Origin: an uncultured bacterium | GTDB lineage: Bacteria > Ratteibacteria > UBA8468 > B48-G9 > DSTR01 | Direction of reading: 5' to 3' | Length of the DNA stretch: 64,000 nt | Assembly (NCBI GenBank): GCA_964645405.1 | Contig: CAZYCA010000044.1 | Span: forward strand, 78,503-142,502 | Shown: positions 4,517 to 55,911 of the stretch, piece by piece | Position numbering within the stretch: the first letter of the stretch is position 1 | Layout of the letters: the number at the start of each line of letters is the position of its first letter | Notes under the pieces: model-generated | Seen by the model: only the letters and a program-made list of their open reading frames with translations | What the model was told of the DNA's origin: nothing | The model's database searches: none | Program-made: the position numbers and the translations under genes

Positions 4517-4595
4517 AAGGCTGTTTCGGTCTGAAAGTTTTGAGATAAAGCAGAAGTATTACCGCGGTAATCAGTTAAACAAAAAAGGGGGGAAA

Positions 4596-5270: not shown

Positions 5271-5320
5271 AAAATCCTGACAAAAAAGAATTTCAATTTC
5301 ATAGGAAAGGAGGTGAGAAA

Positions 5321-6212: not shown

Positions 6213-6369
6213 GTTTTTTATGGCTTCAGTCCAGGCGTTGATAGGGGAATGGTTCTGAATACTGCCCGGTGTATTTCTTATCCTCTCCGGGTAAGGTTGC
6301 TTTACGGAAGGATGGTTAGGTGTTTAAATATCAGTAATAAAGGAAACTACCTCTAACTGGAGGTAAAAG

Positions 6370-7194: not shown

Positions 7195-7223
7195 AGAGTT
7201 AACCCCGGGAAAAGGGAATTGCC

Positions 7224-10058: not shown

Positions 10059-10060
10059 GA

Positions 10061-11908: not shown

Positions 11909-11930
11909 TTTTCCCCCGCTTTTTTGGAAA

Positions 11931-15266: not shown

Positions 15267-15279
15267 CTTCCCCCCATTT

Positions 15280-18654: not shown

Positions 18655-18670
18655 GGGCAGTTTTCCCTTA

Positions 18671-25100: not shown

Positions 25101-27108
25101 AATTTAAGGAAATACCCTTTATCCCCGGGGATAGACTTACTTCCTTTACCAGGCAGCCTTCCAGGGCGAAAGCAGTAGAGTACGCTTCCAGTTCTTTCAC
25201 CCCTGTTTTTAAACCCAGGCTGGAAGAAAGTTCCAGTTTTATACAGGCAACCCCGTGGACAGGATTGATTTGTAAGGTAACCTCTTTCCCCGGATAGAGA
25301 CTTTTTGTCCGGAATTGCTCCCAGAAGTTCCAGTCCCTTTCATACCGGCTGATGGTCTTTCCTGAAATGTCAAGAAAACTAATGGTGAAATAAGTATATT
25401 CTTCCAGGATGATGACCAGTTTTTCTATACTTGCTACCCGGGGAAGACTGACCATCAAAACTGCAGGAAGGTTTTCTGGTTGCCAGGATGTTTCCCTTTT
25501 CCCATCTATTGCCAGGCTGCCATTGCCGCTGGAACAGGTAAAGGCAGCATCCTTCAGAAGATTCTTACTGGCAGGAAAATTAGCCAGAGCAATTTCTTCT
25601 CCAGCAAGAATAATAGTTTCAGGCGTTTCTGGTAAAGGTGGTAAAGAACAAGAAGGTGTTTTCAAAAACGATTTTTCCGGTGTTGAATTTCTGGGTAACG
25701 GTCCCTGGACAATCTTTGTTTCCCCGTTTAACACAGAGAGGAACCATTCTGCTGCCGTGGCAGCCTGGCAGGTAGGGCAAAACCTGACTGCCTGCTCGAG
25801 GTTTTTAATGGCAGTTTCTTTATCAATACACCAGCTACCCCTTCCCGCCTTGAAAAAGTAATCACTGGCAGCATCAGCCAGATTGAGTCTCCTGCACATT
25901 TTGGCACAAAACATCATTACTTCCACCATCAATCCGGGCCGGGTGTCTAAAAAAGGTAGCTGTGCCAGTTGCTTGATTTTATGGCCATCGCGGTGAATGT
26001 CGCCAGCATTTTTTTCCAGATATTTTTTTATCAGATAAATGCTTTCTGTTTTTCCTTTCAGAAAGCTACTGATATGAGCGTAATAGTCTTCAGCTATTCT
26101 TCCAGAAGGCATCACTTCCAGGGCAAAACTGAGGAAAGGAATCTGTCGGGCAGAAGATAAACCTTGAATTTCTTTGAGAAAATCCTTCCAGAAAGGTTCT
26201 GTCACTCCGGCAGGTTGTTTTTTGATTTCTTCAAGTATTTTTAAGGCATCCTGATACTGCTTTGCACCAAATAACTGGTGGATGGAGGAAAGAATTTCCT
26301 TCAGTTTCTGAGCAGTGTTCTTCTCTATCTCTTCCATTTCCTTTAATTTCTGACTGGAATTTTCGTCTCCTGACTTGCTTTGCAAAAAAAGCAACCTTTT
26401 TAAAGCATTCCACCTTTCTGGGGTCTGTTCCTGGTAACGGTCAAGAAAACGTTTCAGCTCAGGAATGGCTTTTTCTGCTGGAACCGTGGAAGTGTAACAG
26501 TCGAGAAAGGACCAGAGAAATACTCTACTGTAAGGATAGGTACCACAGACTTCTTCTCCCCTTCTGGCAAGAATATATTTTTCTTCTGGTGAGAGAGGCA
26601 GACTGGCAATTGTATTCTGGGTTAAGGAAAGCATCCAGGAAGCATGCTGACAGTTGTCCAGGAAAACCAGCAAACAATCTTTTCTTATGTCTTCAGGTAA
26701 ATTACGGTCAATAACAATTCTTACTAACTGGTAAAGCAGGCTGGCCTTCAAACTACCATAGTCAGGATAATCCTTACAGAATTTTGCAAACCCCTCTGCA
26801 AAATTCAGGTACCTGCCTGATGCAAATAAGGAAGAGAGAAAAGTATTTGCTGACCAGGCTGGCCATTGAGTTTCCGGGTAAACATTAGCCAGGTACTTCC
26901 AGCGGGAGAAAAGTTGCTCAGGAGTGAGACCTTTTTCCAGAATAATTTCTTCATAAATTCTTTTTGCCTGGTCCTGCCGGGCTAAATTGTGTTCCGGGTC
27001 GCTGAAACAGTTTCCGCAGAGGAAACTGCCAAGAAAAAATGGCAAGTAAGAAAAACACTGCTTCTTCATTATTCTTTGCTTAAAGCTAACCTGGTGAAAA
27101 GCTACCAC
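22135..27108 (-). CDS. Giant secreted multidomain protein (1657 aa): alpha-helical repeat N-domain, discoidin (F5/8 type C) domain, C-terminal DUF4091/GH123-like module
   Basis: Signal peptide [23 protein letters not shown]. About 450 aa of helical, TPR-like sequence. Discoidin-like [31 protein letters not shown]-terminal [30 protein letters not shown], then [14 protein letters not shown], then WYCCGVPP. Confidence 0.6.
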
Positions 27109-27854
27109 ATTCTGAATTTAGTACTCCAGGGACCATCATCTGTGCCAGAATTGGGCACTGGTGGTGTCACGTATTCTGCATGGCCATCAGCAAACAGAAT
27201 GTTTACACCGTAAAAATGGTGTCTTGCCCACCAGTCCACCACCGGCCGACCAACCGTGGTACTGGCAAAACTTCTGGGTAGCCTGACTATGTACTGGCTG
27301 AAATCTCCGAGGACAAAAAATCTGCTGGGTTCCGGTAACCGGCCAAGTCTTCTGGGACCGGTACCACCTGTTCCCCACCAGTTCCTTCCAAACTGAAGGG
27401 TAAAATTATAGCCATAACTGTGGCCCAGCCAGGAAATGGCAGTACTTGGCCAGCTTGTCGGACACTGAAACTGAGGGATAAACCTGTCAATAGAAGTTGG
27501 CAGAGTGGAATCATGGCAGGTTTTTCCTGTCAGATCTAATTTCGGGTCCAGATAATGAGCAATCTGTAACATCCAGTGAGCCCAGTATTCAGTATTATTC
27601 GGGTAGGTGCCACCAATCCTGGCCGGGTCCCAGGTTACTACGGGAAAATAATCATCATTGTCCTGAAGATACAGGAAAATTGCCAGTCCCATCTGTTTGC
27701 AGTTATTAAGGCAGGCAGCACGTCTGGCATTTTCTCTGGCTCTTTCCAGCACAGGTAAAAGAATGGCAGCTAAAATGGCAATGATGGCAATTACCACTAA
27801 CAATTCAATCAGGGTAAATCCATTTTTCACCCATAATTTTTTTCTGTCCATTTT
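27102..27854 (-). CDS. Prepilin-type N-terminal cleavage/methylation domain protein, DUF1559/H-X9-DG family (pseudopilin-like)
   Basis: Preferred start [11 protein letters not shown]|[24 protein letters not shown] (class III signal peptide, Glu at +5). C-terminal [13 protein letters not shown] matches H-X9-DG. The ORF-track start at 27932 would overlap the next gene. Confidence 0.7.
27720..27822 (-). repeat. About 100-nt segment roughly 80% identical to 28447-28548 (5' ends of the two tandem pseudopilin paralogues)
   Basis: Pairwise comparison by eye: ...ggtaaaagaatggcagctaaaatggcaatgatggcaattaccactaacaattcaatcagggtaaa... versus ...ggcaaaagcaaagcggctaaaatggcgatgatcgcaattaccactaataactcaatcaaagtaaaa... 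Confidence 0.5.
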
Positions 27855-27861
27855 TTCCTCC

Positions 27862-28566
27862 TCATTCAACAAAGGTAAACGGGTTATAAAGAACACCAAT
27901 ACCGGTGGTGGGATTATCAATGCTTTGTTCAATGTTAGGACCTGCTACCCACTGGACCCGGCCATCCATAAAAAGCACATTTACTCCCTGCCAGCCATGA
28001 TTCAGGTAGGCACCGGTGATTCTTGGCTGGTAAGCACTGGCAGTCGTATCCTGCTTTGCTTTCCAGATAGAACTACGTTTGTCAAACGTGTAGTACCACT
28101 TATCGCTTTCATCTATTAAGAGGGCAAACTTCTGGAAGTAGGGGTCACTGCTGACCTGAAGCTGGATGGCATAGGCGTAAGAACAGTGGTTTCTTTTATC
28201 CTTTCCGGTGGGACATCCTCCCGGACAGTTCTGGGAAATACGGGTATTGCGGCCGATATGGTCGTAGGTGCGGGCTGAAGGGCAGACAAAAACTCCGGCA
28301 GATTTCAGATACCCTTCTGTCTGTAGCATCGCCAGAGAACGCAGCATATTCAGGCTGTTGGGCCAGGAAGGAAAAAATCCTCCAAAATCCTGGGCATACA
28401 TAGTTAAAGATGTGCCCAGTTGTTTCAGGTTACTCGTACAGACGCCACGTCGCGCGTTTTCTCTTGCCCGGCCCAGGACAGGCAAAAGCAAAGCGGCTAA
28501 AATGGCGATGATCGCAATTACCACTAATAACTCAATCAAAGTAAAACCTTTACTGTCTGTCTTCAC
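27862..28566 (-). CDS. Prepilin-type N-terminal cleavage/methylation domain protein, DUF1559-like (second tandem paralogue)
   Basis: N-terminus MKTDSKG|[34 protein letters not shown]-terminal [19 protein letters not shown]. Its start overlaps the regulator stop (28563-28566). Confidence 0.7.
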
Positions 28567-29645
28567 CTTATCCTCCTTGTTGATTCTCTGATAAGAATTT
28601 TACCCGGGATAATTGTTCTTAGTTCTACTTTCTCGCCCCGGATAAGACGGATTAGTTTTTCTGCGGCTTTCCTTCCTAAAAGAGAAGGGAAAATATCTGC
28701 GGTGGTCAGACTGGGGATGGTGTGCTGGGTAAAGGAAGAATTGTGACAGCCGCAGAGAGAAATATCTTCCGGGACAGATAATCCTTTTTCTCTGATGGCT
28801 CTCAAGGCACCAACGGAGATAAAATCATCGGCACAGACCAGTGCGGTAGGGGAATATTTCAAAATTTTTCTGGCATTTTCATAGCCGCTGATTTCAGAGA
28901 AAGCACCATGTTTTACCAGGGTTTTTTCATAACCAATCCCGTATTTCTGAAGAGCCATTCTATACCCGTTAAGTTTGTCCTGGCAGACAGTCAGTCTCTT
29001 TGGACCGTTTATAAAGCCTATCTTTTTGTGTCCTGACTTGAGAAGATGTTCTGTAAGCAGGTAAAAGATTTTCTGGTGGTCGACATCTACGGTAGAAACA
29101 TTTTGTTCTTGTGTTCTGCCCAAAACAACGAAAGGGGTACCCATCTTTTGCAGTTTTTTTACCCTGTTATCAGAAAAGGTGGGCTCGGTCAGGATAACAC
29201 CCTGCAGGGAATTTTTCTTTCCGGGCTCAAGGTAACCGTTCTCCGTATCAGTGAAGACCAGTACGTCCTGTCCGTACGTACATGTAACACTCTTGATTCC
29301 CAGAAGGAAATCAGAAACAAAAGGTGAACAGAGTCCCCCGTTGGTGGAGGGGATAACTATGCCAATAGGTGCACCTCCTTTCTCAGCCGAGCAAAGTTTT
29401 TCTGCCACATAGGTACCTTTGCCGGGAACCCGGAAGAGAAGGCCATCTCTGGTTAGTTCCACCAGCGCCTGACGGATACTGATGTGGCTGACACCAAAGA
29501 GATGACACATCTGTCTTTCTGAAGGTAGTAACTGACGGGGTTTGAGTATTCCTTCCACAATTGCCCTGCGGATGGCTTCCTTGACCTGAATATAGAGTGG
29601 CACAGGATTATTTCTTTCTACCTTCTGGAATATCTTTTCAGGCAT
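28563..29645 (-). CDS. Transcriptional regulator with a GntR-type winged-helix N-domain and a LacI/PBP1 periplasmic-binding-fold sugar-sensor domain
   Basis: N-terminus [48 protein letters not shown] (GntR HTH). The C-terminal ~270 aa resemble a LacI-family ligand-binding domain. First gene of the long minus-strand operon. Confidence 0.65.
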
Positions 29646-29781: not shown

Positions 29782-30540
29782 ATGGTCAGACGGGAAACAC
29801 TGGTAAAGTTTATTGATAATTATCTGAAGACAACTGAGGTCAGGGATTCTTCCTGGAATGGATTGCAGGTAGAGGGTAAGGCTCTTGTAAGAAAAGTTGT
29901 GGGTGCTGTGGATGCGGGGCTGGAAACCTTCCGTGTGGCTCTGGCAAAAAAGGCGGATTTTTTGATAGTACATCATGGGCTTTTCTGGAAGCAGATTCTT
30001 CCTTATTTGACAGGGGTAAACAAGGAAAGAATTAAGATTCTACTGGATAACCAGCTATCTCTCTATGCCAGCCATCTACCTTTAGACAGGCATCCAAAAA
30101 TAGGCAACAATGCCCTGTTGTTGAAGACTATTGGCGCTAAGAAGGAAAGGGAATATTTTCTTTATGAGGGCCAGAGTATCTCCTGGACAGGTATTTTTCA
30201 ACCGGCTACAACTACAAAAGAAGTCGTAGCCAGGCTGGAAAAATATCTCCGGACAAACTGTCGGGTGCTGGACTTCGGACCGAAAAAGGTAAACCGGGTA
30301 GCTGTCTGCAGCGGTGCTGGTGGGCTGGCGGCTTTTACTCAGGCATTGAGCCAGGAAGTGGATTTGTATGTGACCGGGGAGGAAACTGATTTTTACCACC
30401 TGGCAAAGGACAACAATTGTGCAGTTATTTTTGCGGGTCACCATGCGACAGAAACCCTTGGTGTCCAGGCTTTATTGCGACTGGTAGCTGCCAGATGGAA
30501 GCTGGAGACAGTTTTTGTTGATATTCCTACCGGGCTTTGA
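29782..30540 (+). CDS. Nif3-family (YqfO/YbgI) dinuclear-metal-centre protein
   Basis: 252 aa. N-terminal HHGLFW and C-terminal GHHATE motifs. RBS AAGGAGGG. Confidence 0.65.
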   Translation: MVRRETLVKFIDNYLKTTEVRDSSWNGLQVEGKALVRKVVGAVDAGLETFRVALAKKADFLIVHHGLFWKQILPYLTGVNKERIKILLDNQLSLYASHLPLDRHPKIGNNALLLKTIGAKKEREYFLYEGQSISWTGIFQPATTTKEVVARLEKYLRTNCRVLDFGPKKVNRVAVCSGAGGLAAFTQALSQEVDLYVTGEETDFYHLAKDNNCAVIFAGHHATETLGVQALLRLVAARWKLETVFVDIPTGL

Positions 30541-30575
30541 TTTCTCGTGGTAAAGAAGTTTTTTGGAGGAGGGGA

Positions 30576-33500
30576 ATGGTTAATTTTCATATGGAGGAAC
30601 TTCGCCGTAGCCTCCCGGGGATGGCCGGTAAAGGGAAGGGAAACGGTTCTCTGCGTAGCAATCGGGAAGCTCCCTTGCGGGCAGAATTGCTCAGCATAGA
30701 ACAACTGAAGCGGCACGCAGTAGAGTTAGCCCGCCGGCATACGGCAGAAATAAAAGCCGGGGAGAATCTTCTTCTTGCCAGGTTAGATAAAAACGAAGAG
30801 ATTCTTTTACAGGCTTTCACAGAACTCAGCCAGGCAGTGGAGAAACAGCAGGAGCTTGTCCCGGCTGCTGAATGGTTAATTGATAACTTCTACCTCATCC
30901 AGGAGCAGATTAGACTGGCAAGAAAACATCTCCCGCGTTCTTATAGCCAGCAGCTGCCCAGTTTAACCAGAGGACCGTTGACTGGTTATCCCCGGGTTTA
31001 TGAGATTGCTTCCGAGCTTATTGCCCACAGCGATGGACGGGTGGAAGACAGAAATCTTTATACTTTCGTAGCAGGCTATCAAACGGAAAGTTTTCTCACC
31101 CTTGGTGAACTCTGGGCCATTCCGATTATGCTGCGGCTGGCTCTGATTGAAAACATCAGACGGATAGCCAGCCGGCTCATCAATAGCCGCGCCGCCCGTA
31201 CTGAAGCAGCCTACTGGGTAAACCAGATGAGTAAAGCAGTGGAACAAAGCCCTGATAATCTTATCCTTGTTGTCGCGGATATGGCGCGGGCAAATCCTGT
31301 CCTAAATTCCTCCTTTGTGGCTGAATATGCCAGACTTCTTCAGGGGCAGAGTGCCGTCTTTGTTCTTGCTCTCACCTGGCTGGAGCAGCGTCTGGCTGCT
31401 GAAGGTTCTTCCATTGAACAACAGGTGCGTTTAGAAAATCAAACCCAGGCCGCAGACCAGGTTTCCATCAGTAACAGTATCAACAGTCTGCGTTTTCTGG
31501 ATGGGATGGACTGGCATGAGTTTGTAGAAGGTGTCAGTGTAGTGGAATCAATTCTTCGGACTGACCCGGCTGACGTTTATTCCCGTATGGATTTTGCTAC
31601 CAGGGACCGTTATCGTCATGCAGTAGAAAAGTTAGCAAAATTTTCAGGGCAGAAGGAAGAACAGGTGGCACAGAAAGCGATTGAACTGGCTAGAACCTGT
31701 CGGCAGCAAAATGGGGAAGATATAAAATACAGCCATGTTGGTTTTTACCTGATAGGACCAGGTATCTCTGAGTTAGAAAAAGGCCTGGGCGTGCCATTGA
31801 CTTTCTGTCGCAGGCTAAAACTCTGGTGTCAGAAAAAGGTTTTTCTCTGGTATGCGGGCAGCATTGGAGTGATAACATTGGCTCTGTCGCTGTTTATTTT
31901 GCGGGCTATTGGTTACCTCCCGCTGTGGCTGGCAATTTTCACTCTTTTTTTGCTTTTCGTCGTTTGCAGTCAGCTTGCTGTTGCCTTGACCAACTGGATG
32001 ACAACACTTTTTGTCAAACCGGTGCTTTTACCGCGTCTTGATTTTTCCCGGGGATTACCTCCGGAGTGCAGGACGCTAATAGTTTTCCCGGTGATCTTAA
32101 GCGACAGCAAAACGGTGGAGCAACTCTTAGAAAATCTTGAAGTCCAGTACCTGGCTAATCGGGATGAACATATCCATCTGGGACTGCTTACTGATTTTAA
32201 AGATTCCTTCCAGGAAAAGGAACCGGAAGATGAAGTTCTTTTGCACGAGGTTAAGGAGGGTATTCGGAAACTTAACAGGCGGTACCGGAGCCAGGGACAG
32301 GATATCTTCTTCCTTTTTCATCGCGACCGGACTTGGAACCCAAAGGAAAAGTGCTGGATGGGTTATGAACGTAAAAGAGGCAAGCTGCTCGGGTTGAACA
32401 TGCTCATCCAGGAAGGGAGAAAGGATGCTTTTACCCTTATCCTGGGAGAAATGGAGACTTTAAGGAAAGTGCGTTATGTGGTCACTCTGGACGCTGACTG
32501 TCAGTTGCCCAGGGAAGCAGTACGCAAGATGGTCGGGTGTCTGGAGCATCCTCTGAACAAGCCCCGGTATGAGGAGAAGAAACAGACAGTGGTGGAGGGA
32601 TATGGTATCCTGCAGCCCCGGGTAGCAACCAGTCTAACAAGTGCCAATCGGTCTCTCTATGCGAGGTTTTTCAGCGGAGAGCCAGGTCTGGACCCCTATA
32701 CCAGAGTTGTCTCTGATGTCTATCAGGACCTTTTCCAGGAGGGCTCTTTTGTAGGTAAAGGTATCTACCATGTGGAAACTTTTACCAGGGCACTTAAAGA
32801 ACGTTTCCCTGATAATTTAATTCTCAGTCATGACCTTCTGGAAGGCTGTTATGTGCGTTGTGGTCTTATCAGCGATGTCCAGGTATATGAGAATTTTCCG
32901 GCTCGTTACAGTGCTGATGTAAAGAGAAGACACCGCTGGATTAGAGGAGACTGGCAGATTTTAGCCTGGCTTTTTCCCCGGGTCCCAGGAAGAAGAGAAA
33001 AATGGGTGGTCAATCCTCTGAACAGCATAAGCCGGTGGAAAATCTTTGATAATATAAGAAGGAGTCTCTTCCCTCCTTTCTTGCTGCTTTTGGTCCTGGT
33101 AGGATGGCTGTTTTTAAAACCGGTCTGGATCTGGACAGTTCTCACCTCCGGACTTATATTTTTACCACTTTTCCTGAATGCCGCCTGCGGGATGCTGCAA
33201 CGGTCAAGAGAGATGTACTGGCTGGCTGCTTTGCGCATTGCCTTCCGTTCCGCAGGCAAGTATTTTATTCAGGCCTGTTTCTTTCTTGTTTTCCTTCCTT
33301 ACGAGGCGTTTCTTTCGCTTGATGCCATCACCAGAACCATCTGGCGTCTTTTGATTACCAGGCGTGGGCTACTGCAATGGGTGACCTCTGTTGAATCAGA
33401 GAAGAAATCAGAAAGTAATCTCTCAGAATTTTTAAAACTGATGTGGGTGGCTCCGTTAATCTCCATAGCCAGCTTAGTATCTCTGACAGTTTTTTCCTCT

Positions 33501-36500
33501 GTTTCCTTGCTCTTTGCGGAAATTTTTATCTGGGGATGGCTGTTTTCCCCTGTGGTTGCCTGGTGGTTGAGCCAGCCGCTTGTGATCTGGGAGACAGGTT
33601 TAAATGAGCAACAGATTTATTTCCTTCGGCGGGTTGCCCGGAAAACCTGGAGTTTCTTTCAAACTTTTGTGAATGCCGGAACCAGGTATCTGCCACCGGA
33701 CAACTATCAGGAGTACCCGGTCAGACGCGTCGCTTACCGCACTTCACCAACCAACATTGGCCTGACTTTACTTTCTACGCTGGCAGCCCGGGATTTAGGG
33801 TATCTCACCGGCAGCCACTTTGTTTTTCGTCTGCAGCAGACTTTGAATACCCTTCAACGGTTGAAACGTTTCCGGAAGCATTTTTACAACTGGTATGATT
33901 TAAAAACCTTAGAGCCACTTGCCCCTGTTTACATTTCCACTGTGGATAGCGGAAATTTAGCCGGACATCTACTTGTTCTGCACCAGGCACTTTTGGAGAT
34001 GTGTGATTCTCCGATTTTTGCCGAACAGTCACTGGCTGGTTTGGGTGATACTCTGTATGTGCTGCTGGAAGTAGCCGGTCAAGCCGAGAAACACCAGTTA
34101 AGACAGCTACCGGTTTTTTCGCGGGTGATGCGGGCAGGCTGGCGAGAGTTGACAACCCAGATGGAACAACCCGTGAAATCTTTGACTGGTATGTTTTCCC
34201 TTTTAGAAAAGGTGAAAGAGATGCACCAGGTGATGGAGGGAGAACTGAGAACCAGAGACAGAGAGGTAAATCGCTGGCAGAGGCTGTTAAGGGAACACTA
34301 TCAATCCCTGGAGGAGGAGCTAAATACTATCAGTCCCTGGGTGAGATTGCTTGCCGAACGGCCGCAGAATAATCTCTGGGCAGAATCCGTGAGAAAAACC
34401 TTAGAAAAACTCTGCCAGCTGGTAGATGAAAATCTTCCCCTGAGGAAGCTGGCTAATCTTTCTGCAGAGTTAGAAGGTTATCTCAGTGACCTGAGGGATT
34501 ATGCGGCAGCAAGTCAAGCTTCTGATTTGCTTAAGTGGCTGGAAAAACTTTCTTCAGCGATTGAAAAAGGAGCAAGTAAGGCTGAGCAACGTTTGCAGGA
34601 TTTAACCTCCTTAGCGGAGAGATTTGCGGAAATGGCTGATATGGACTGGGATTTTCTTTATGACCGTTCCTCCCGGTTATTGTCACTCGGGTACCATGTG
34701 GCAGAAAGAAGAAAAGATGCCATCTATTATGACCTTCTGGCTTCAGAGGCAAGACTGGCCAGTTTTGTCGCTATCTCCCTGGGACTGCTTCCTCAGGAGC
34801 ACTGGTTTGCTCTAAATCGCTTAATCACCGGAGAAGGTGAGAATGCTGTCCTGGTCTCCTGGGGTGGGTCAATGTTTGAGTATTTAATGCCGCTTCTGGT
34901 GATGCCAAACTTCCGCGGGACTTTGCTTGACCAGTCATGTCAGGCTGCGGTCAGGAGGCAGATAGAGTATGCGGCGGAACGGGGTGTGCCCTGGGGAATC
35001 TCTGAAGCTGCCTACAACGCGGTAGATTCCAGCCGGAATTACCAGTATGATTCTTTTGGCGTCCCTGGTCTGGGTTTGAGAGCAGGACTAGCTGAGGACC
35101 TGGTGGTGGCGCCTTATGCCTCAGCTTTAGCGTTGATGGTAACACCAGCCAGAGCCTGCCAGAATTTACAGCGTTTAAGGAAGGAAGGGATGGAGGGCCG
35201 TTTTGGTTTCTATGAATCCGTGGACTATACACCAGGAAGACTGGTACCGGGTCAGGAGAAGGCAATTGTTCGGTGTTTTATGGCTCATCATGAGGGAATG
35301 AGTCTGGTTGCCATCGCTAACACCCTTTTAAACCTGCCCATGGTGCGGCGTTTCCGGCAGAATCCTTTTTTCCGTTCAGCTGAACTCCTGCTGCAGGAAA
35401 GGGTACCTGATGTGGAACCATTCCAGTGGCCAGCAGAAGAATTGCCGCGTTATCGTCGGACTTCAGAAAAACAGGCAGCACTGATGAGAATTTTTACTGA
35501 GCCTGATACCCCGATGCCAGAAATCCATCTTCTCTCCAACGGGCGTTATACCGTAATGGTCACAAATGCCGGAGGAGGTTTTAGTCGCTGGCAGGATATA
35601 CTCCTGACAAGATGGCGGGAGGATTACACCCGTGATAACTGGGGTCTTTTCTTCTATGTGAAAGATGTCTCTACAGGTCAGTTCTGGTCAATAGGTCACC
35701 AGCCAGCACTACGGCCTGGCCGCAGATATGAAGTTATTTTCTCCCAGGCGAGGGCTGAATTCAGAAGAGTTGACGGTGATTTTGTCACCCATATGGAAAT
35801 TGCTGTTTCTCCTGAGGATGATATTGAGCTGCGCCGTATCAGTATCACCAACCGTTCCTGGTCTACCCGGACGATAGAACTCACCAGTTATGCAGAAGTA
35901 GTTCTGGACCAGGCATCTTCTGATGCCACTCATCCTGCTTTCAGTAAACTTTTTGTCCAGACAGAAATCCTGAAGCAGAGGCAGGCGATTATCTGTACCA
36001 GGCGGCCGCGTTCAGAGAAAGAAAGAGGCCTCTGGTTTTTTCATCTGGTGACCATCCATGGTGAACCAGCAAGGTCAGTAACCTATGAAACGGACAGGAT
36101 GAAGTTTTTAGGTCGGGGGAGAACTCCAGCAGAGCCAGTGGCGCTGGAAAGGGAACTTTCTAACAGCCAGGGACCGGTTCTGGACCCGATTGTGGCTATC
36201 AGGTGTCATCTCACCCTGGAGCCAGATGAAACCAGGGTTGTTGACTTTATTTCCGGTGTGGCAACCGAGAGAGATAAAGCAGAGTTGTTGCTGGAACGCT
36301 ATCATGACCCTGATTTAGCCAGTCGTGTTTTCAGTTTAGCCTGGACCCACAGCCAGGTTGTTTTGCACCAGTTAAATACCACAGAAGCGGATGCTCAACT
36401 TTATGGAAGGTTAGCCGGTTCTATAGTGTACGGCGGACCACAGCGTCGTGCTCCTGCAGGAATTCTTTTGAGGAGTAGAGGCAGACAGTCTGCTCTCTGG

Positions 36501-39347
36501 GCGTATGGTATCTCAGGAGATTTACCGATTGTTCTGGTGCGCATCAGCGATGCTTCACGGGTGGAACTCATCAGACAGATTCTGCAGGCTCACGGTTACT
36601 GGCAGGCCAAGGGGTTGAAAGTTGACCTTGTTATCTGGAATGAAGAAACTGGTAGTTACCGTCAGCAGCTGCATGATTTAATCATGAATATTTTAGCCGG
36701 TTTCCCCAATACTCAACTGGATACTCCAGGTGGTGTTTTTGTGCGCCGTATTGATCAGATGACAGAAGAGGATAGACTTCTCATGCAGGCTGCAGCCAGA
36801 ATCATTCTTCAGGATAGCAGAGGGTTACTCCCAGACCAGATAAGTTACAGAGCTACTGCTGAACTTCCGCCTCTTATGATTCCGGAAAAGAGCCGGCGCC
36901 TGGAGGCAGGGGAAGGACTATCCAGAAGGAAGGATTTAGAGTTTGCTACTGACTATGGCGGTTTCACCGCTAATGGCAGAGAGTACGTTATCCATGTCTG
37001 GCGGAGAAGGTTACCTCCTGCTCCCTGGGTAAATGTTATTGCCAATCAGGTTTTCGGGACAGTAGTTTCAGAATCTGGTTCTGCTTACACCTGGGCGGAA
37101 AATGCCCATGAGTTTCGCCTTACACCCTGGTACAACGACCCGGTCTCAGATGTAAGTGGAGAAGTGGTATATCTCCGGGATGAGAAAACAGGATACTTCT
37201 GGTCAGCTACACCTCTTCCCGCAGGAGGACCATTTCTCTACAGAGTTACCCACGGGTTTGGTTATACGGTTTATGAGTACCAGGAAAACTTTCTTCATTC
37301 CCAGATGTGGGTGTTTATTGCTCCTGATATGCCGATAAAGTTTTTTTATCTGAAGCTAGATAATAACTCCTCACAGGCAATGAGGCTTTCGGCGACAATC
37401 TATGTGGAATGGATATTGGGACAGTTACGTTCTCAGACAGCCATGCATGTTTCTACAGAGGTGGATTCCCGAACAGGGGCTATCCTGGCGAGAAACCATT
37501 ACAATATAGAATTTGCTAATAGGGTTGTTTTCCTGGATGCAGGTGAAGCGGAACATGAGTTTTTAGAAAGAAGTGTTACCGGAGACCGCACAGAATTTTT
37601 GGGACGAAACGGCACCCCTGTAGCCCCGGAGGCCATGAAACGGGAACGTCTTTCCGGTAGAACTGGAGCAGGCTTTGACCCGTGCGGTGCAGTGCAGGTT
37701 TTCTTTGACCTGGAGGCTCAGGAGAGCAAGGAACTGGTTTTTGTTCTGGGAAGCGGGCATAACCTGGAACAGGTGCGCAGTCTCCTGCTCCGTTATAGAA
37801 ATGTTGCTGCTGCCAGGTCTGTCCTGAAAGATGTGCAGAACCGCTGGAGACAGTTACTCAGTGCAGTGCGGGTGGAAACACCTGATTTAGCGTTGAATAT
37901 TATGGCTAATGGATGGTTGTTATACCAGACGTTAGCCTGTCGGTTTTTTGGCCGGAGTGCCTTCTATCAGTCTTCAGGTGCCTACGGTTTCCGGGACCAG
38001 TTACAGGATGTGATGGCTCTGGTTCATGCCACACCTTCCCTGGTACGTCGTCATTTGTTACGATGTGCTTCCAGGCAGTTCCGGGAAGGAGATGTGCAAC
38101 ACTGGTGGCATCCGCGAATTAGCCGGGGTGTCCGCACCAGAATTTCTGATGACCTGCTCTGGTTGCCGTTAGCCACCAGCCGGTACATAGCTACCACCGG
38201 GGACAGGGAGGTGCTGGGACACCAGGTGCACTATCTGGTAGGTCGTCCTCTGGGAACCGGGGAAATAGATTATTATGATTTGCCCTATCAATCAGAAGAA
38301 ACAGGTTCCCTTTATGAACATTGCCGGCTGGCTATCCGTCGCGCCTGCCGGTTTGGACCACATGGACTGCCTTTAATGGGAAGTGGTGACTGGAATGATG
38401 GAATGAACATGGTAGGAATTGAAGGTAAAGGGGAGAGTGTCTGGCTTGGTTTCTTCCTTTACCATGTGTTAATGGAGTTTGCTCCGGTAGCTGAAGAGTG
38501 GGGAGATAAATCCTTTGCCGAAGAATGCCGTCAGATAGCCAGAAATTTACAGGAAAATATTGAGAAACATGGATGGGATGGAAAATGGTACAGGAGAGCT
38601 TATTTTGATAACGGGCAAGTCCTTGGTTCTTCAGTCAATGAGGAGTGCCAGATAGATTCCTTACCTCAGAGCTGGGCAGTTCTTTCCAGGGCTGCAGGAA
38701 GGCAGCGGGCTATTCTTGCTCTTTCCTCAGTAGAGGAATATCTTGTAGACGAGAAAGCTGGACTTATCAGGCTTTTATTCCCACCTTTTGACAGAAGTCA
38801 CCTGAACCCGGGGTACATAAAGGGCTATGTCCCGGGTGTGAGAGAAAATGGTGGTCAGTATAACCATGCTGCTTGCTGGGTGGCTATGGCTCTGGCACAT
38901 CTTGGTGAGGCTGATAATACCTGGAAAATTTTCCGGTTGCTGCATCCCATTTATCGGAGTGAAACTACGGAAAAAGCTGAACGTTATGCTGTGGAACCCT
39001 ATGTCATGGCAGGGGATATTTATGCTGTCAGTCCTCATACTGGAAAGGGAGGCTGGACCTGGTATACCGGAGCTAGTGGCTGGATGTACCAGCTTATACT
39101 GGAATCACTCTTGGGTTTAAGAAGGAAAGGGCAGATGATAGAAGTAGTTCCCTGTGTCCCTGAAAACTGGCTTTCTTACAAGATTCATTATCGCTTCGGG
39201 AAAAGCATCTATCATCTGGATATAATCAGAAAAGGACCGGGCAGTTCAGTCAAAACTGTTCTTCTGGACAACCAGTTTATCCAGGATAAAGCCTTTCCCC
39301 TGCAGGATGATGGGAAAGAACACCAGGTGGAAATTCACTTTGGCTGA
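30576..39347 (+). CDS. cgs: Cyclic beta-1,2-glucan synthase-like giant (about 2920 aa): N-terminal cytosolic domain, TM segments, GT84 glycosyltransferase, second TM cluster, helical middle region, C-terminal GH94 phosphorylase-like domain
   Basis: GT84-like region TLIVFPVILSDSKTVEQLLENLEVQYLANRDEHIHLGLLTDFKDS with DxD in VVTLDADCQ. Hydrophobic clusters near aa 440-490 and 830-1000. GH94 N-domain ANQVFGTVVSESGSAYTWAENAHEFRLTPWYNDPVSDVSGEVVYLRDEKTGYFWS and catalytic-region YQSSGAYGFRDQLQD. Start taken at the ATG at 30576 (RBS GGAGGAGGGGA 4 nt upstream) rather than the TTG at 30537. Confidence 0.7.
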   Translation: MVNFHMEELRRSLPGMAGKGKGNGSLRSNREAPLRAELLSIEQLKRHAVELARRHTAEIKAGENLLLARLDKNEEILLQAFTELSQAVEKQQELVPAAEWLIDNFYLIQEQIRLARKHLPRSYSQQLPSLTRGPLTGYPRVYEIASELIAHSDGRVEDRNLYTFVAGYQTESFLTLGELWAIPIMLRLALIENIRRIASRLINSRAARTEAAYWVNQMSKAVEQSPDNLILVVADMARANPVLNSSFVAEYARLLQGQSAVFVLALTWLEQRLAAEGSSIEQQVRLENQTQAADQVSISNSINSLRFLDGMDWHEFVEGVSVVESILRTDPADVYSRMDFATRDRYRHAVEKLAKFSGQKEEQVAQKAIELARTCRQQNGEDIKYSHVGFYLIGPGISELEKGLGVPLTFCRRLKLWCQKKVFLWYAGSIGVITLALSLFILRAIGYLPLWLAIFTLFLLFVVCSQLAVALTNWMTTLFVKPVLLPRLDFSRGLPPECRTLIVFPVILSDSKTVEQLLENLEVQYLANRDEHIHLGLLTDFKDSFQEKEPEDEVLLHEVKEGIRKLNRRYRSQGQDIFFLFHRDRTWNPKEKCWMGYERKRGKLLGLNMLIQEGRKDAFTLILGEMETLRKVRYVVTLDADCQLPREAVRKMVGCLEHPLNKPRYEEKKQTVVEGYGILQPRVATSLTSANRSLYARFFSGEPGLDPYTRVVSDVYQDLFQEGSFVGKGIYHVETFTRALKERFPDNLILSHDLLEGCYVRCGLISDVQVYENFPARYSADVKRRHRWIRGDWQILAWLFPRVPGRREKWVVNPLNSISRWKIFDNIRRSLFPPFLLLLVLVGWLFLKPVWIWTVLTSGLIFLPLFLNAACGMLQRSREMYWLAALRIAFRSAGKYFIQACFFLVFLPYEAFLSLDAITRTIWRLLITRRGLLQWVTSVESEKKSESNLSEFLKLMWVAPLISIASLVSLTVFSSVSLLFAEIFIWGWLFSPVVAWWLSQPLVIWETGLNEQQIYFLRRVARKTWSFFQTFVNAGTRYLPPDNYQEYPVRRVAYRTSPTNIGLTLLSTLAARDLGYLTGSHFVFRLQQTLNTLQRLKRFRKHFYNWYDLKTLEPLAPVYISTVDSGNLAGHLLVLHQALLEMCDSPIFAEQSLAGLGDTLYVLLEVAGQAEKHQLRQLPVFSRVMRAGWRELTTQMEQPVKSLTGMFSLLEKVKEMHQVMEGELRTRDREVNRWQRLLREHYQSLEEELNTISPWVRLLAERPQNNLWAESVRKTLEKLCQLVDENLPLRKLANLSAELEGYLSDLRDYAAASQASDLLKWLEKLSSAIEKGASKAEQRLQDLTSLAERFAEMADMDWDFLYDRSSRLLSLGYHVAERRKDAIYYDLLASEARLASFVAISLGLLPQEHWFALNRLITGEGENAVLVSWGGSMFEYLMPLLVMPNFRGTLLDQSCQAAVRRQIEYAAERGVPWGISEAAYNAVDSSRNYQYDSFGVPGLGLRAGLAEDLVVAPYASALALMVTPARACQNLQRLRKEGMEGRFGFYESVDYTPGRLVPGQEKAIVRCFMAHHEGMSLVAIANTLLNLPMVRRFRQNPFFRSAELLLQERVPDVEPFQWPAEELPRYRRTSEKQAALMRIFTEPDTPMPEIHLLSNGRYTVMVTNAGGGFSRWQDILLTRWREDYTRDNWGLFFYVKDVSTGQFWSIGHQPALRPGRRYEVIFSQARAEFRRVDGDFVTHMEIAVSPEDDIELRRISITNRSWSTRTIELTSYAEVVLDQASSDATHPAFSKLFVQTEILKQRQAIICTRRPRSEKERGLWFFHLVTIHGEPARSVTYETDRMKFLGRGRTPAEPVALERELSNSQGPVLDPIVAIRCHLTLEPDETRVVDFISGVATERDKAELLLERYHDPDLASRVFSLAWTHSQVVLHQLNTTEADAQLYGRLAGSIVYGGPQRRAPAGILLRSRGRQSALWAYGISGDLPIVLVRISDASRVELIRQILQAHGYWQAKGLKVDLVIWNEETGSYRQQLHDLIMNILAGFPNTQLDTPGGVFVRRIDQMTEEDRLLMQAAARIILQDSRGLLPDQISYRATAELPPLMIPEKSRRLEAGEGLSRRKDLEFATDYGGFTANGREYVIHVWRRRLPPAPWVNVIANQVFGTVVSESGSAYTWAENAHEFRLTPWYNDPVSDVSGEVVYLRDEKTGYFWSATPLPAGGPFLYRVTHGFGYTVYEYQENFLHSQMWVFIAPDMPIKFFYLKLDNNSSQAMRLSATIYVEWILGQLRSQTAMHVSTEVDSRTGAILARNHYNIEFANRVVFLDAGEAEHEFLERSVTGDRTEFLGRNGTPVAPEAMKRERLSGRTGAGFDPCGAVQVFFDLEAQESKELVFVLGSGHNLEQVRSLLLRYRNVAAARSVLKDVQNRWRQLLSAVRVETPDLALNIMANGWLLYQTLACRFFGRSAFYQSSGAYGFRDQLQDVMALVHATPSLVRRHLLRCASRQFREGDVQHWWHPRISRGVRTRISDDLLWLPLATSRYIATTGDREVLGHQVHYLVGRPLGTGEIDYYDLPYQSEETGSLYEHCRLAIRRACRFGPHGLPLMGSGDWNDGMNMVGIEGKGESVWLGFFLYHVLMEFAPVAEEWGDKSFAEECRQIARNLQENIEKHGWDGKWYRRAYFDNGQVLGSSVNEECQIDSLPQSWAVLSRAAGRQRAILALSSVEEYLVDEKAGLIRLLFPPFDRSHLNPGYIKGYVPGVRENGGQYNHAACWVAMALAHLGEADNTWKIFRLLHPIYRSETTEKAERYAVEPYVMAGDIYAVSPHTGKGGWTWYTGASGWMYQLILESLLGLRRKGQMIEVVPCVPENWLSYKIHYRFGKSIYHLDIIRKGPGSSVKTVLLDNQFIQDKAFPLQDDGKEHQVEIHFG

Positions 39348-39352: not shown

Positions 39353-40270
39353 TTATTTCCCTCTGATTAAGCAGGCTACTTCATGTCCCGGTTCTATCTC
39401 TTTCAGAGCAGGAATATAGTCCAGACAGCAATTTTCAAACTCAGGACAGAAACAGGCATAAGGACAACCCTGGCTAGGTATGGTTCTCAAGGCTAACCGG
39501 GTAACTCTGTACTGAGAAGAAGCCACCAGAGACATAGTATAAGGATGAGCGGGTGATCTGATAATCTGGCTGGACTTTCCTATTTCCACAATTCTTCCCC
39601 GGAACATGACCGCAATTCTATCAGCAAGAAATTCCACCACCTTTAGATTATGGGAAATGAAAAGGTAAGTTAAAAAGTATTGCTCCTTCAGTTGCAGAAA
39701 AAGATTGAGAATCTGTGCCTGAACAGAAAGGTCCAGATTGGATGTTGGTTCGTCGCATACCAGAAATTCTGGTTCTGGACCAAGCGCTCGGGCAATCGCT
39801 AACCGCTGTCTCTGTCCTCCGCTGAACTGGTGGGGCAAGCGGTCAAAATCATCAGTACTCAGCCCCACATCCAGAAGCAGTTTCCTTGCCCTTTCTTTTT
39901 TTTCTGAAAAACTACCGGCAGCTGCCTCCATAATAATTTGACCGGCTTTCATCCTGGGATTGAGAGAACGGTAGGGGTCCTGGAAAACTATCTGAAAGTT
40001 TTTCCGCAGCCCACGCAACCTGCTTTCTGGAAGATGTGTTATCTCTAAAGTGCGAAAGAAAATCCTGCCAGAACTGACGGGAAGAAGCCTTAAAAGTACT
40101 TTCCCGAGCGTGCTTTTTCCACTCCCACTTTCACCGACCAGTCCAAGGGTTTCTCCCTGGTAGAGACGCAGGTCAATGTCCTTCAGAGCCTCCAGTCTTA
40201 TTGCCCCGCCCAGGGGGTCTGTCAGCTGGTATGTTTTATTAACTTTTTTCAGTTCCCAGAGTTTTTCCAT
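39353..40270 (-). CDS. ABC transporter ATP-binding protein, OppF/DppF type
   Basis: Walker A GESGSGKST, ABC signature LSGGQRQR, Walker B FLVCDEPTS, and a C-terminal Cys/His-rich Opp-type extension. Confidence 0.8.
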   Translation of the reverse strand: MEKLWELKKVNKTYQLTDPLGGAIRLEALKDIDLRLYQGETLGLVGESGSGKSTLGKVLLRLLPVSSGRIFFRTLEITHLPESRLRGLRKNFQIVFQDPYRSLNPRMKAGQIIMEAAAGSFSEKKERARKLLLDVGLSTDDFDRLPHQFSGGQRQRLAIARALGPEPEFLVCDEPTSNLDLSVQAQILNLFLQLKEQYFLTYLFISHNLKVVEFLADRIAVMFRGRIVEIGKSSQIIRSPAHPYTMSLVASSQYRVTRLALRTIPSQGCPYACFCPEFENCCLDYIPALKEIEPGHEVACLIRGK

Positions 40271-41204
40271 AGCGAAAACACCTTACCTTGATATCATCTC
40301 TCCTGAATACCGGCGGCTGGCTGCAGGTACATACGGGCAGTCTGTATCTACAACGCGGGTGATAGGAGCAACCAGAAGGTAGTCTCCGGAAATCAGGTAC
40401 AGAACCCGGGATGGCACTGATGGTCTGTTTCGGCTGATACTTTTCCGGAAGGCACCCGATGAGGTTTTCTGTGTAAGGATGCAGTGGTGAGGAAAAAATT
40501 TTCTTCGCCGGTCCGATTTCCACAATCTGTCCTGCGTACATAACAGCAAGCCTGTCACCGAAATGACAGGCCAGGGCGATATCGTGTGTAATCAGAAGAA
40601 GGGCAAGTCTATGCTTTTCCTGGAGGGTTTGAATAAGAGTCATAATCTGAATGGCAGTGGTGACATCAAGAGAGGTAGTTGGTTCATCTGCAATGAGAAG
40701 AGCGGGCTGGTTAATTAAAGCCATGGCAATCAGGCTACGTTGTTGCATCCCACCACTTAACTGGTGAGGGAATTGCCAGTAATGCATAGGTTTTAAGCCC
40801 ACCTCTGTCAGAGCCTGGAATACCTTCTCTTTTTTTTCTTTTTTTGTAAGTGGTGCTCTGATAGCTTCTGCAATCTGGTTGCCAATAGAATACACCGGGT
40901 TAAGGTAAGAAGATGGTTCCTGAAAAATCATTCCTATTTTTTTGCCTCTGATATTCAGCATATCTTTTTCGGCAAGATTAACAAGGTTATCTCCCAGCAG
41001 GTTTATCTCTCCCCGGTCAATTCTGGCATGCCGGGGCAGGAGTTTCACAATGGAAAGGGCAGTCAGAGTCTTCCCGCAACCACTTTCTCCTACCAGAGCA
41101 AGACTTTCCCCGGATTGGATGTCAAATTCCACTTCAGAAAGGATATTAACCGGGATCTTGCCCTGATGATAAAAGGAAACCTTTAGATTTTTAACGTTTA
41201 ACAT
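40239..41204 (-). CDS. ABC transporter ATP-binding protein, OppD/DppD type
   Basis: Walker A GESGCGKT, signature LSGGMQQR, Walker B LLIADEPTT, and a C-terminal Opp-type CxxC...C extension. Confidence 0.8.
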   Translation of the reverse strand: MLNVKNLKVSFYHQGKIPVNILSEVEFDIQSGESLALVGESGCGKTLTALSIVKLLPRHARIDRGEINLLGDNLVNLAEKDMLNIRGKKIGMIFQEPSSYLNPVYSIGNQIAEAIRAPLTKKEKKEKVFQALTEVGLKPMHYWQFPHQLSGGMQQRSLIAMALINQPALLIADEPTTSLDVTTAIQIMTLIQTLQEKHRLALLLITHDIALACHFGDRLAVMYAGQIVEIGPAKKIFSSPLHPYTENLIGCLPEKYQPKQTISAIPGSVPDFRRLPSGCSYHPRCRYRLPVCTCSQPPVFRRDDIKVRCFRYGKTLGTEKS

Positions 41205-41213
41205 TTAACATCC

Positions 41214-42281
41214 TTACCAGTTCTTAGGGTCAAGTACATCCCGGAGGCCATCTCCTAAAAAGTTAAAGCAGATAACCGTGAGGAAAATGCAGCCACCAGG
41301 TATCAGCATCCAGGGTGCACCTGTTAAGATACGGAGATTGCCAACACAAATAGAAAGCATGTTGCCCCAGCTGGGGTATGGTTCCTGAATTCCTAAACCA
41401 AGCAGGCTTAATGTTGATTCTCCCAGGATATAGCCCGGAATGGAAAGTGTTAAGGCTGTGATAGTGTAGGAAAAGGTATTCGGGAGTATATGTCGGGTAA
41501 TGATACGAAAGCTTGATAATCCTAAGGCCCGGCTGGCCATCACAAACTCTTCTTCTTTCAAGGAAAGAACCATCCCCCGGATGACCCGCGCCAGGGAAGC
41601 CCAGCCAATTAAACTCATAATAACGACAATGAGCAGGTAAAGCTGGAGGGAAGAAATATTTGGTTTGAACGCAGCGCGTAAAGCCAGAAGAAGATAAAAC
41701 CCGGGGAAGGTCATGATGATTTCTACCAGCCGCATCAAAACAGTATCCAGACGTCCCCCTATGTATCCTGAAATTCCGCCGATGAGAAGACCAAGGAAGA
41801 AAGAGATGGACACACCAATCAGACCAATGGAAAGGGAGATTCTGGCCCCATGAAGAACACGAGAGAAAACATCCCGGCCGTGCAAGTCTGTCCCGAAAAG
41901 AAAAATCTTACCTTCCGGCGCCACACCAAAGAGGCGGCGGCCACCAGAAGGGAAAAACATAATTTCGTAGCGCGTGGAGAAATCCTCCTGATATTCCTTT
42001 AAAGCTGGATTAACAATTGCTATCCGGTAAACAAACGGTCGCCAATGGAAACGACCGTCTCTGTCAAAAAAGTGGATTCTTGTCGGCGGGCAAAGAGAAT
42101 ATTCCCGGAACTGGCTATCATAAGGATAGGGTGCAATAAAATCAGCCAGAAGAGCAGCTAAGTAAAGCAGAAGAAGAAGCACCAAAGACACGCAGGCTGG
42201 TCTGTTTGCTCTTTTTAACCGGTTCCAGAAGTTTATCATAAGTTTCCCCTTTCTACTTGAGGCGAATGCGTGGGTCTGCAA
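41214..42281 (-). CDS. ABC transporter permease, OppC/DppC type
   Basis: Multi-TM protein with the binding-protein-dependent permease EAA-like region (SRALGLSSFRIITRHILPN). The real start may be MINFWNRL at 42239, which would avoid overlap with the upstream gene. Confidence 0.75.
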   Translation of the reverse strand: MQTHAFASSRKGKLMINFWNRLKRANRPACVSLVLLLLLYLAALLADFIAPYPYDSQFREYSLCPPTRIHFFDRDGRFHWRPFVYRIAIVNPALKEYQEDFSTRYEIMFFPSGGRRLFGVAPEGKIFLFGTDLHGRDVFSRVLHGARISLSIGLIGVSISFFLGLLIGGISGYIGGRLDTVLMRLVEIIMTFPGFYLLLALRAAFKPNISSLQLYLLIVVIMSLIGWASLARVIRGMVLSLKEEEFVMASRALGLSSFRIITRHILPNTFSYTITALTLSIPGYILGESTLSLLGLGIQEPYPSWGNMLSICVGNLRILTGAPWMLIPGGCIFLTVICFNFLGDGLRDVLDPKNW

Positions 42282-43218
42282 TTACCAGAAGGATATCCGC
42301 TATGAGGTTTCCAGCTACCAGCAAAAAACCTCCTATGAGAAGGGAAGCCATAACCAGGTAAAGATCCTGAGACAAAACTGCATCCAGGATGAGACGACCC
42401 ATTCCTGGCCAGTTGGTTATGATTTCCACCAAAGCAGCACCGCTTAAGATACTGGAAAGTTCATAGCCAAAAATGGTAATCATCGGATTGATGGCGTTCC
42501 TTAAAGCATGCTTGTAGAGAACAACAAACCGTGGCAGTCCTTTGGCATGGGCCGTCAGAATATAGGGACTGCCCAGGGCTTCCAGAAAGTTATTTTTCAT
42601 CAGGCGGTAAAGAGAACCTGTGCCCGCAAGTGTTAAAGCCAGGCCCGGCAGTAAAAGATGGTGGAGATAATCTATGAATTTTTGCCAGAGACTGGCCTGT
42701 TTCCAGAAGATACTGGTGGTGCCACCAACAGGTAAAACCAGGGTGCGGGCAGCAAAAAAAACCAGAAGCATTGCCAGAAAGAAGGAAGGGAGAGAAATAC
42801 CAACATAAGCTAAGCTGGATAAGAGTGTTTCCTGCCAGCGGCCATTTTTCTGCGCCGCATATATACCCAGGGGTATGGCTACAAGCCAGGTCAGAGTAAT
42901 GGAGAAAACAGAAAGGCTGATGGTGTTTAGCAACCGCTGTCTAATCAGAAAAGCATTAGGCACATGGTAAGCAAAAGATTCACCGAGGTTTAAAGTAAGG
43001 ATATTCTTCAACCAGTAAAAATACTGGACCATAACAGGTTTGTCCAGGCCAAAATTCTTTTCCATGGCAGCAATGGTTTCCGGTGAAATCTGCGGGTTCA
43101 TCTTCAGCTGGGTGAAATAGTCTCCAGGAGCAAGATGGATGATAAGAAAGGAAAGCAACGTCATACCCAGGAGAAGCGGGATAAACTGCATCAGACGCCT
43201 GAGGATATACCTTCTCAT
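42253..43218 (-). CDS. ABC transporter permease, OppB/DppB type
   Basis: 321 aa, six predicted TM segments, motif AHAKGLPRFVVLYKHALRNA typical of DppB/OppB. Confidence 0.75.
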   Translation of the reverse strand: MRRYILRRLMQFIPLLLGMTLLSFLIIHLAPGDYFTQLKMNPQISPETIAAMEKNFGLDKPVMVQYFYWLKNILTLNLGESFAYHVPNAFLIRQRLLNTISLSVFSITLTWLVAIPLGIYAAQKNGRWQETLLSSLAYVGISLPSFFLAMLLVFFAARTLVLPVGGTTSIFWKQASLWQKFIDYLHHLLLPGLALTLAGTGSLYRLMKNNFLEALGSPYILTAHAKGLPRFVVLYKHALRNAINPMITIFGYELSSILSGAALVEIITNWPGMGRLILDAVLSQDLYLVMASLLIGGFLLVAGNLIADILLVIADPRIRLK

Positions 43219-52521: not shown

Positions 52522-52648
52522 TTTTGCCTTCTCCCGTAGAAGTTTGAAAGGTATTTTATCTTTAATCAGCCCTTTCAGACAAGTGGTGGGGTTCAGGTAG
52601 AAAATGACAGCGCTGTTTTCAGATGATAAAATTGAAGCAGGCAAAAAT

Positions 52649-55257: not shown

Positions 55258-55911
55258 TCAGATGAAGAGAAGCTGGTGGTAGTCTTCATACCTATGAAAG
55301 TCAGCTTTGGGAAAATGGGCAGTAGAAGAAAGCTCAGGTTCTGTCCAGGCTGAAGAGTAATTGTACCGGCATACAGCAAATCGCCAGCCTGTCTGCGGGA
55401 GGCTAAACTTCTCTAAACCAAAGGAAGACCAGGGGATGGTAATTTCTACAGCCCAGGCTTCTTTCAGGATAAAAGTTTTATACCGACTGTGGCTGTTAAA
55501 GTTTAGAACATCTTCCCAGGAAACCTTTTTATTTCTGAATTTTTCCCTGGAGGGGATGCGCAGGTCCATGATGTGTCCGTTGGGGGAGATATGAATTTCG
55601 TAATACACAGTTTGCCGTGGCCCTGGTTTGATAAAAAATTCTACAGTGTCACCCAGCATCCATATTTTCTGGTTGTCAGAGGTAACCTTTGTAATGATTT
55701 CACTGTCTTCTAAGAAAGCTGCAAACCGCAGTCCTTCTTCATCATACCCAGTCCAGGCAAAACCATTCTCTCGCGGAAGGTAATTTTCCTTATCCCAGAA
55801 GCGAATCAGAGGCAGTTCAGACTCTTCCGGAAAAGGAGCTGGTGGTTTAACAGAAAAATCCTTTACCGGACCGCTGATTTTCTGACACAAAACCACTTTT
55901 TTCTTTTCCAT
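55258..55911 (-). CDS. Hypothetical protein with a CBM9/DOMON-like beta-sandwich resemblance
   Basis: GDTVEFFIKPG...YYEIHISPNGHIMDL resembles CBM9-type carbohydrate-binding modules. Weak call. Confidence 0.35.
   Translation of the reverse strand: MEKKKVVLCQKISGPVKDFSVKPPAPFPEESELPLIRFWDKENYLPRENGFAWTGYDEEGLRFAAFLEDSEIITKVTSDNQKIWMLGDTVEFFIKPGPRQTVYYEIHISPNGHIMDLRIPSREKFRNKKVSWEDVLNFNSHSRYKTFILKEAWAVEITIPWSSFGLEKFSLPQTGWRFAVCRYNYSSAWTEPELSSTAHFPKADFHRYEDYHQLLFI

Follow-up and report, generated by a model that had tools for sequence, protein, structure and literature searches.

The window, i.e., the whole stretch of DNA that was analysed, is 64 kb in length and carries on its plus strand an uninterrupted reading frame extending from a TTG codon at nt 30537 to nt 39347. 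Within this frame lies the cgs gene (nt 30576–39347, +), which was delimited by its ORF and by alignment to the Cgs protein of A. tumefaciens (8rf0). Starting from an ATG, it encodes 2923 aa, confirming that the single ORF of ~2920 aa described at this position in an earlier, sequence-only reading is intact, and both of the motifs quoted in that reading (AYTWAENAHEFRLTPWYNDPV and GFRDQLQD) were found in the translation. The identical protein is already present in NCBI, JGI and Logan assemblies, and the same gene recurs across several independent assemblies. The majority of the public gene calls give a protein of 2923 aa (ATG), and two JGI calls give 2936 aa (TTG).

The ATG at nt 30576 is preceded by a Shine-Dalgarno-like sequence (GGAGGAGGGG, nt 30565–30574, +) that can be read directly from the DNA. 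Its GGAGG core occupies nt 30565–30569, leaving 6 nt between the core and the ATG. Because of this Shine-Dalgarno sequence, and because alignments with homologues begin at around residue 20–31, the ATG is favoured as the start of cgs and the TTG at nt 30537 is the less likely candidate. The TGA/TTG junction at nt 30537–30540, to which the earlier reading had pointed, is therefore probably not its start.

A gene of the DUF34/NIF3 family (nt 29782–30540, +; PF01784, E 1e-54) ends 35 nt upstream of the cgs ATG, and no terminator-like or promoter-like site was seen in the spacer. The short gap, together with a spacer lacking such sites, makes co-transcription of the two genes plausible, as had been suggested, although the TGA/TTG junction that was part of the suggestion is probably not the start of cgs and the linkage is kept in none of 80 other cgs loci. 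A functional link between Nif3 and Cgs was rejected since none of these 80 loci is flanked by a Nif3 homologue, and we take the adjacency of the two genes to be a lineage-specific gene order and not a functional module.

Residues 32–2887 of the cgs product align to residues 23–2807 of A. tumefaciens Cgs (AtCgs, 8rf0) with a score of 2038 bits, far above chance, and the alignment to the AtCgs cryo-EM structures (8rf0 and 8rf9) is collinear and near full-length. The cytoplasmic N-terminal domain (NTD, ~residues 1–420; nt 30576–31835, +) is collinear with AtCgs residues 23 to ~415 and, going by the AtCgs paper (PMC10901819), would serve as a scaffold and as a TPR-like region that binds the primer. 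It is followed by a hydrophobic pair, TM1–TM2 (residues 424–470; nt 31845–31985, +), comprising Kyte-Doolittle segments at residues 424–442 and 452–470 that align with the AtCgs TM region, and then by the GT84 domain (~residues 480–830; nt 32013–33065, +), in which residues could be mapped to AtCgs. A second hydrophobic cluster, TM3–TM6 (residues 827–994; nt 33054–33557, +), was likewise located by Kyte-Doolittle hydropathy and is collinear with AtCgs TM3–6. Next is the cyclization domain (GH189, residues 1006–1612; nt 33591–35411, +), which matches the corresponding domain of TiCGS from Thermoanaerobacter italicus (8wy1) with an E value of 2.4e-134, and within which PF10091 (a 'glucoamylase' fold) spans residues 1384–1586. 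The GH94 phosphorylase region (nt 35511–39344, +) contains two stretches matching the GH94 supersandwich family PF06165 (E 3e-165, 548 bits) and one matching the GH94 catalytic family PF17167 (residues 2424–2847; E 1e-125, 420 bits). Over its C-terminal ~800 residues the protein matches phosphorylases of cellobiose and chitobiose (E ~1e-82), and the alignment with the cellobiose enzymes runs from end to end.

The proposal that both GT84 and GH94 would be detectable by profile held for GH94, through PF06165 and PF17167. No Pfam match was returned over the GT84 region, so the assignment of this domain rests on the alignment to AtCgs and not on a profile. The NCBIfam search returned no family for the protein, a result that is uninformative and was not counted against the Cgs assignment. 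By a hydropathy heuristic, as distinct from a dedicated topology predictor, the hydrophobic clusters fall at the TM positions of AtCgs and give a six-TM-like anchor, with two segments ahead of the GT domain and a cluster of several more behind it. This agrees with AtCgs itself, where six TM helices in a 2+4 arrangement form a bundle without an export channel (PMC10901819). All parts of the Cgs/NdvB/ChvB architecture that had been proposed for this ORF (NTD, GT84, TM clusters and GH94) are thus present by alignment, Pfam and hydropathy, and the middle region carries a complete GH189 domain, the lack of which would have pointed elsewhere. As the profiles do not fail and the cyclization domain is not missing, the protein is, judged from its sequence, a complete, canonical and intact Cgs of a well-known enzyme family, from a lineage in which it is uncharacterised.

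Residues with experimental support were taken from the papers on AtCgs cryo-EM (PMC10901819) and TiCGS (PMC10834661), transferred by region-by-region alignments, and their positions checked in the cgs translation. In the GT84 site, D540, expected to coordinate UDP, corresponds to At D527, and D639 and D641 to At D624 and D626; the latter pair forms the DxD motif (within TLDAD) that had been noticed earlier. The catalytic base D753 matches At D739, and R787-W788 (the RW motif) matches At R773. The predicted priming tyrosine is Y708 (in GLDPY), equivalent to At Y694 (in GIDPY), and is situated in the IF1-homology loop. In the cyclization domain, D1124 corresponds to At D1104, the acid/base E1391 to Ti E1356 and At E1300, the nucleophile E1477 to Ti E1442, and the supporting E1435 and H1571/H1572 to Ti E1400 and H1536/H1537. 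In the GH94 domain, D2474 matches At D2393, and the catalytic acid D2608 matches At D2528. Across 75 full-length homologues aligned with MAFFT, among them rhizobial NdvB and a copy from an E. coli plasmid, all 15 mapped positions were invariant.

The host looks like an Omnitrophota-like member of the PVC group, judging from several features of the window, and the earlier description of the genome as PVC-like is borne out. Genes near cgs encode two proteins of the DUF1559/N-terminal-methylation kind that is typical of PVC bacteria, and the best named relatives of the RpoD protein of the window belong to 'Candidatus Omnitrophica' (82%, 68% and 65%) and 'Candidatus Ratteibacteria' (64–66%). The closest Cgs in one-genome-per-species data (70% identity) is from an Omnitrophota MAG, with the same Opp-type ATPase pair downstream, and the NCBI taxonomy counts Omnitrophota among the PVC bacteria. 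A cluster of genes for Fur, rubredoxin, two rubrerythrins, an AhpC-type peroxiredoxin and desulfoferrodoxin (window nt 3313–6100, +; nt 13188–16087 of the extension contig L087) suggests an anaerobic or microaerophilic host.

Homologues of Cgs are numerous, with at least 7,968 proteins at E<=1e-50 in a large protein collection, many of them labelled 'cyclic beta-1,2-glucan synthetase', and at least 586 matching species-level genomes. Those with 46–54% identity include proteins of Nitrospirota, Ignavibacteria, Bacteroidota, Desulfobacterota, Acidobacteriota, Planctomycetota and Verrucomicrobiota. Full-length cgs genes (44–45% identity) are also carried by plasmids of E. coli, Klebsiella, Enterobacter and Pantoea, e.g., the conjugative IncF plasmid CP057517.1 of E. 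coli (cgs at nt 7908–16490), which has no annotated exporter within 8 kb of the gene. One bacterial-type Cgs (52% identity) is found in a methanogenic archaeal bin ('Methanolinea sp. SDB', LKUF01000507.1), the contig probably having been mis-binned.

Downstream of cgs, on the opposite strand, are two ATPase and two permease genes of an Opp/Dpp-type ABC importer (nt 39353–43218, −). The Pfam matches (ABC_tran with oligo_HPY, and BPD_transp_1 with OppC_N) uphold their earlier description as Opp-type components. There is no adjoining gene for a substrate-binding protein; what follows is a DHDPS-like gene. An identical arrangement of the ATPase pair, convergent with cgs and downstream of it, is found in the Omnitrophota MAG carrying the 70%-identical protein (L003, nt 6046–8035, −). 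The Opp transporter is not regarded as belonging to the Cgs system and was rejected as a candidate for the glucan exporter, as it has the architecture of a binding-protein-dependent importer, is convergent with cgs, and resembles NdvA only in the nucleotide-binding domain.

On the other side of the nif3 and cgs genes, four giant ORFs of 1111, 1124, 1155 and 1657 aa are arranged in tandem, three with weak matches to the GH123 catalytic domain and one without a Pfam match (nt 11931–27108, with nt 27102–28566 and nt 28563–29645, all −). Upstream of them, on the same strand, are two DUF1559/N-methyl prepilin-like genes and a regulator combining a GntR-type HTH with a LacI-type periplasmic-binding fold. 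The block of giant ORFs, DUF1559 genes and regulator looks like a PVC-style glycan-degradation operon. ORFs without any Pfam match (E<=1e-3) are located at nt 52604–54199 (+, 531 aa), 18671–22138 (−, 1155 aa), 6370–7194 (+, 274 aa), 55258–55911 (−, 217 aa) and 63429–63995 (+, 188 aa).

No ORF of the 64-kb window joins an N-terminal membrane domain to an ABC ATPase, and the only ORFs with both a Walker A motif and an ABC signature are the two Opp ATPases. Pfam searches of essentially all window ORFs of at least 150 aa were negative for ABC_membrane-type exporters, for OpgC/Cgm and for beta-1,2-glucanases. Two Rhizobiaceae loci served as positive controls, and the exporter-finding heuristic does detect the control NdvA. 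In Rhizobium sp. NLR16a (L085) the annotated gene order is cgs, opgC and a 'glucan ABC transporter ATP-binding protein/permease', and the same cgs-opgC-ndvA order was recovered in Sinorhizobium sp. M103 (L086) by tblastn with the NdvA and OpgC proteins of the former. When NdvA was searched by tblastn against the window and 80 other cgs loci, similarity was confined to the nucleotide-binding domain (NdvA residues ~327–582) of stand-alone ATPases, which were hit in the window and also in seven loci of the 80; neither a membrane-domain match nor an OpgC match was found in any of them. Metagenome contigs that carry the window a further ~10 kb in the upstream direction and ~5 kb in the downstream direction (L087, L089 and L090) were also without an NdvA or OpgC match. 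The Rhizobiaceae-type cgs-opgC-ndvA/chvA cluster is thus lacking at this locus over the ~80 kb read, and the sequence-only reading was correct in reporting no ChvA/NdvA exporter near cgs.

That reading had regarded the missing exporter as an anomaly, a view that does not survive comparison: a ChvA-type exporter within 10 kb of the gene is present in 0 of the 80 non-rhizobial loci, which come from other species, whereas the Rhizobiaceae controls do, so the window is typical. What had seemed an odd setting is the rule for the Cgs family outside Rhizobiaceae, and the survey shows that the clustering of cgs with its exporter described in textbooks is a Rhizobiaceae trait and not a family-wide one. 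Neither ndvA nor opgC lies within 8 kb of a 'protein ndvB' gene on a 2.16-Mb replicon of Sinorhizobium sp. B11 (p1; L083, nt 7947–16424), in contrast to the two control loci, so that even in Sinorhizobium the classic cluster is not always present.

When the 1,103 ORFs flanking cgs in the 80 loci were clustered in an unbiased way, no widely conserved neighbour emerged, the biggest cluster being represented in 11 of the 80. A cluster of 604-aa proteins was considered as a possible exporter and discarded, its members being PAS histidine kinases. A gene for a single-domain response regulator is positioned directly 5′ of cgs, on the same strand, in ten Bacteroidota loci of Chryseolinea, Cyclobacteriaceae and Chitinophagales types (L029, nt 3438–3764; L031, nt 9472–9807; L039, L049, L053, L055, L057, L060, L076 and L077), and this may represent a lineage-specific regulatory link. 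Nine loci, belonging to Ignavibacteria, Nitrospirota, Syntrophales and further groups, have a B12-binding radical-SAM/DUF4070 gene in the vicinity of cgs (L012, nt 21967–23448; L025, nt 8441–9943; L022, nt 8194–9675; L013, L028, L035, L045, L046 and L070).

The claim that an adjacent exporter is needed does not apply to synthesis, since Cgs alone in E. coli produces cell-associated cyclic glucan and Cgt is needed for export only (PMC11071196). If the glucan were never exported by a transporter of the ChvA/Cgt family, it could be a cytoplasmic compatible solute or store, or be moved by an unrelated transporter. The cell-associated product fits such a scheme, as does the lack of a fused TMD-NBD exporter or OpgC in the window, its extensions and the 10 kb around 80 cgs loci, by a method that recovers NdvA where it exists. 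Set against this, an absence over ~80 kb is silent on the remainder of a multi-megabase genome, and most genomes are rich in type-I ABC exporters. In Brucella, moreover, cgs and cgt are unlinked, yet act together. On balance, a cytoplasmic or otherwise ChvA/Cgt-independent fate for the glucan is possible but the less probable outcome. The wider proposal, that the Omnitrophota-like lineage and possibly most of the environmental phyla with cgs make the glucan without either a ChvA/NdvA/Cgt exporter or an OpgC-type modifier, is similarly tentative. If true, Omnitrophota, along with many environmental phyla, would have a genuine, exporter-less variant of the system, in which the glucan acts in the cytoplasm or leaves by an unrelated route. 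The physiology would then be unlike that known from alphaproteobacteria, where the glucan is a periplasmic osmoprotectant with a role in host interaction.

The reading of the locus that we strongly favour is that of a Cgs making cyclic beta-1,2-glucan through its GT84, GH94 and GH189 domains in an Omnitrophota-like (PVC) host. By homology with the characterised enzymes, GT84 would use UDP-glucose to glucosylate Tyr708 as a primer and then extend a linear beta-1,2 chain, and the C-terminal GH94 phosphorylase would trim over-long chains phosphorolytically and so control their length. GH189 would then free the ring by intramolecular transglycosylation, with E1477 as nucleophile and E1391 as acid/base acting through the 3-OH of the substrate. 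The ring would be expected on the cytoplasmic side with ~17–25 glucoses, a size carried over from homologues and not predictable from the sequence. As Cgs has no export channel, export to the periplasm, if any, would need a separate transporter, presumably encoded elsewhere.

A product other than the classical all-beta-1,2 ring, i.e., a linear beta-1,2-glucan or a precursor closed through an alpha-1,6 linkage by a separate enzyme, is improbable. Alpha-1,6-closing pathways do exist, as in the NdvB/OpgD system of Xanthomonas (bioRxiv 10.1101/2025.04.21.649730), but in the present protein GH189 is complete, with its nucleophile, acid/base and supporting residues conserved, and no OpgD/GH186-like gene is found among the annotated window ORFs. 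That cgs is a decaying or non-functional relic of horizontal transfer is very improbable indeed: its closest relatives in other lineages are only 54% identical and belong to unrelated phyla (e.g., Nitrospirota), which fits an old transfer, but the 8.8-kb ORF is intact with all catalytic residues kept, its GC content (0.47–0.50) is close to that of the surrounding genome (0.43–0.47), and the 70%-identical orthologue in another Omnitrophota MAG is accompanied by the same downstream ATPase genes.

With a Cgs of the classical type as the preferred reading, an uncultured Omnitrophota-like bacterium joins a long list of phyla with a complete enzyme, and the gene is a routine orthologue of one that is well understood in structure and mechanism. 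The fate and role of the glucan in free-living environmental bacteria is a question that spans hundreds of species and is not particular to this locus.

Compared with A. tumefaciens Cgs (ChvB), Brucella abortus Cgs and Sinorhizobium NdvB, the window Cgs has the same order of parts (NTD, TM1–2, GT84, TM3–6, cyclization domain, GH94) and is of similar length (2923 aa versus ~2820–2870 aa). It shares all of the experimentally defined catalytic and priming residues of the rhizobial/AtCgs type, although identity to characterised rhizobial NdvB is only about 36–37%. The locus differs from those of Rhizobium sp. NLR16a and Sinorhizobium sp. M103 in missing the cgs-opgC-ndvA cluster, and its carrier is an uncultured, Omnitrophota-like bacterium and not a symbiont or pathogen from the alphaproteobacteria. 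The functional residues of the TiCGS cyclization domain (8wy1), i.e., E1356, E1400, E1442 and H1536/H1537, are all matched (by E1391, E1435, E1477 and H1571/H1572); that enzyme is from a Gram-positive Firmicute and was characterised as an isolated domain only. The catalytic Asp of GH94 is conserved with cellobiose and chitobiose phosphorylases and with the 1,2-beta-oligoglucan phosphorylase LpSOGP, but these are free-standing catabolic enzymes, whereas the GH94 of the window Cgs is a length-control module fused within a synthase. The Cgs proteins of environmental bacteria and enterobacterial plasmids (44–54% identity over the full length), all of them uncharacterised, have the same architecture and are likewise without an adjacent exporter; the window Cgs makes up a separate branch together with the Omnitrophota protein to which it is 70% identical.
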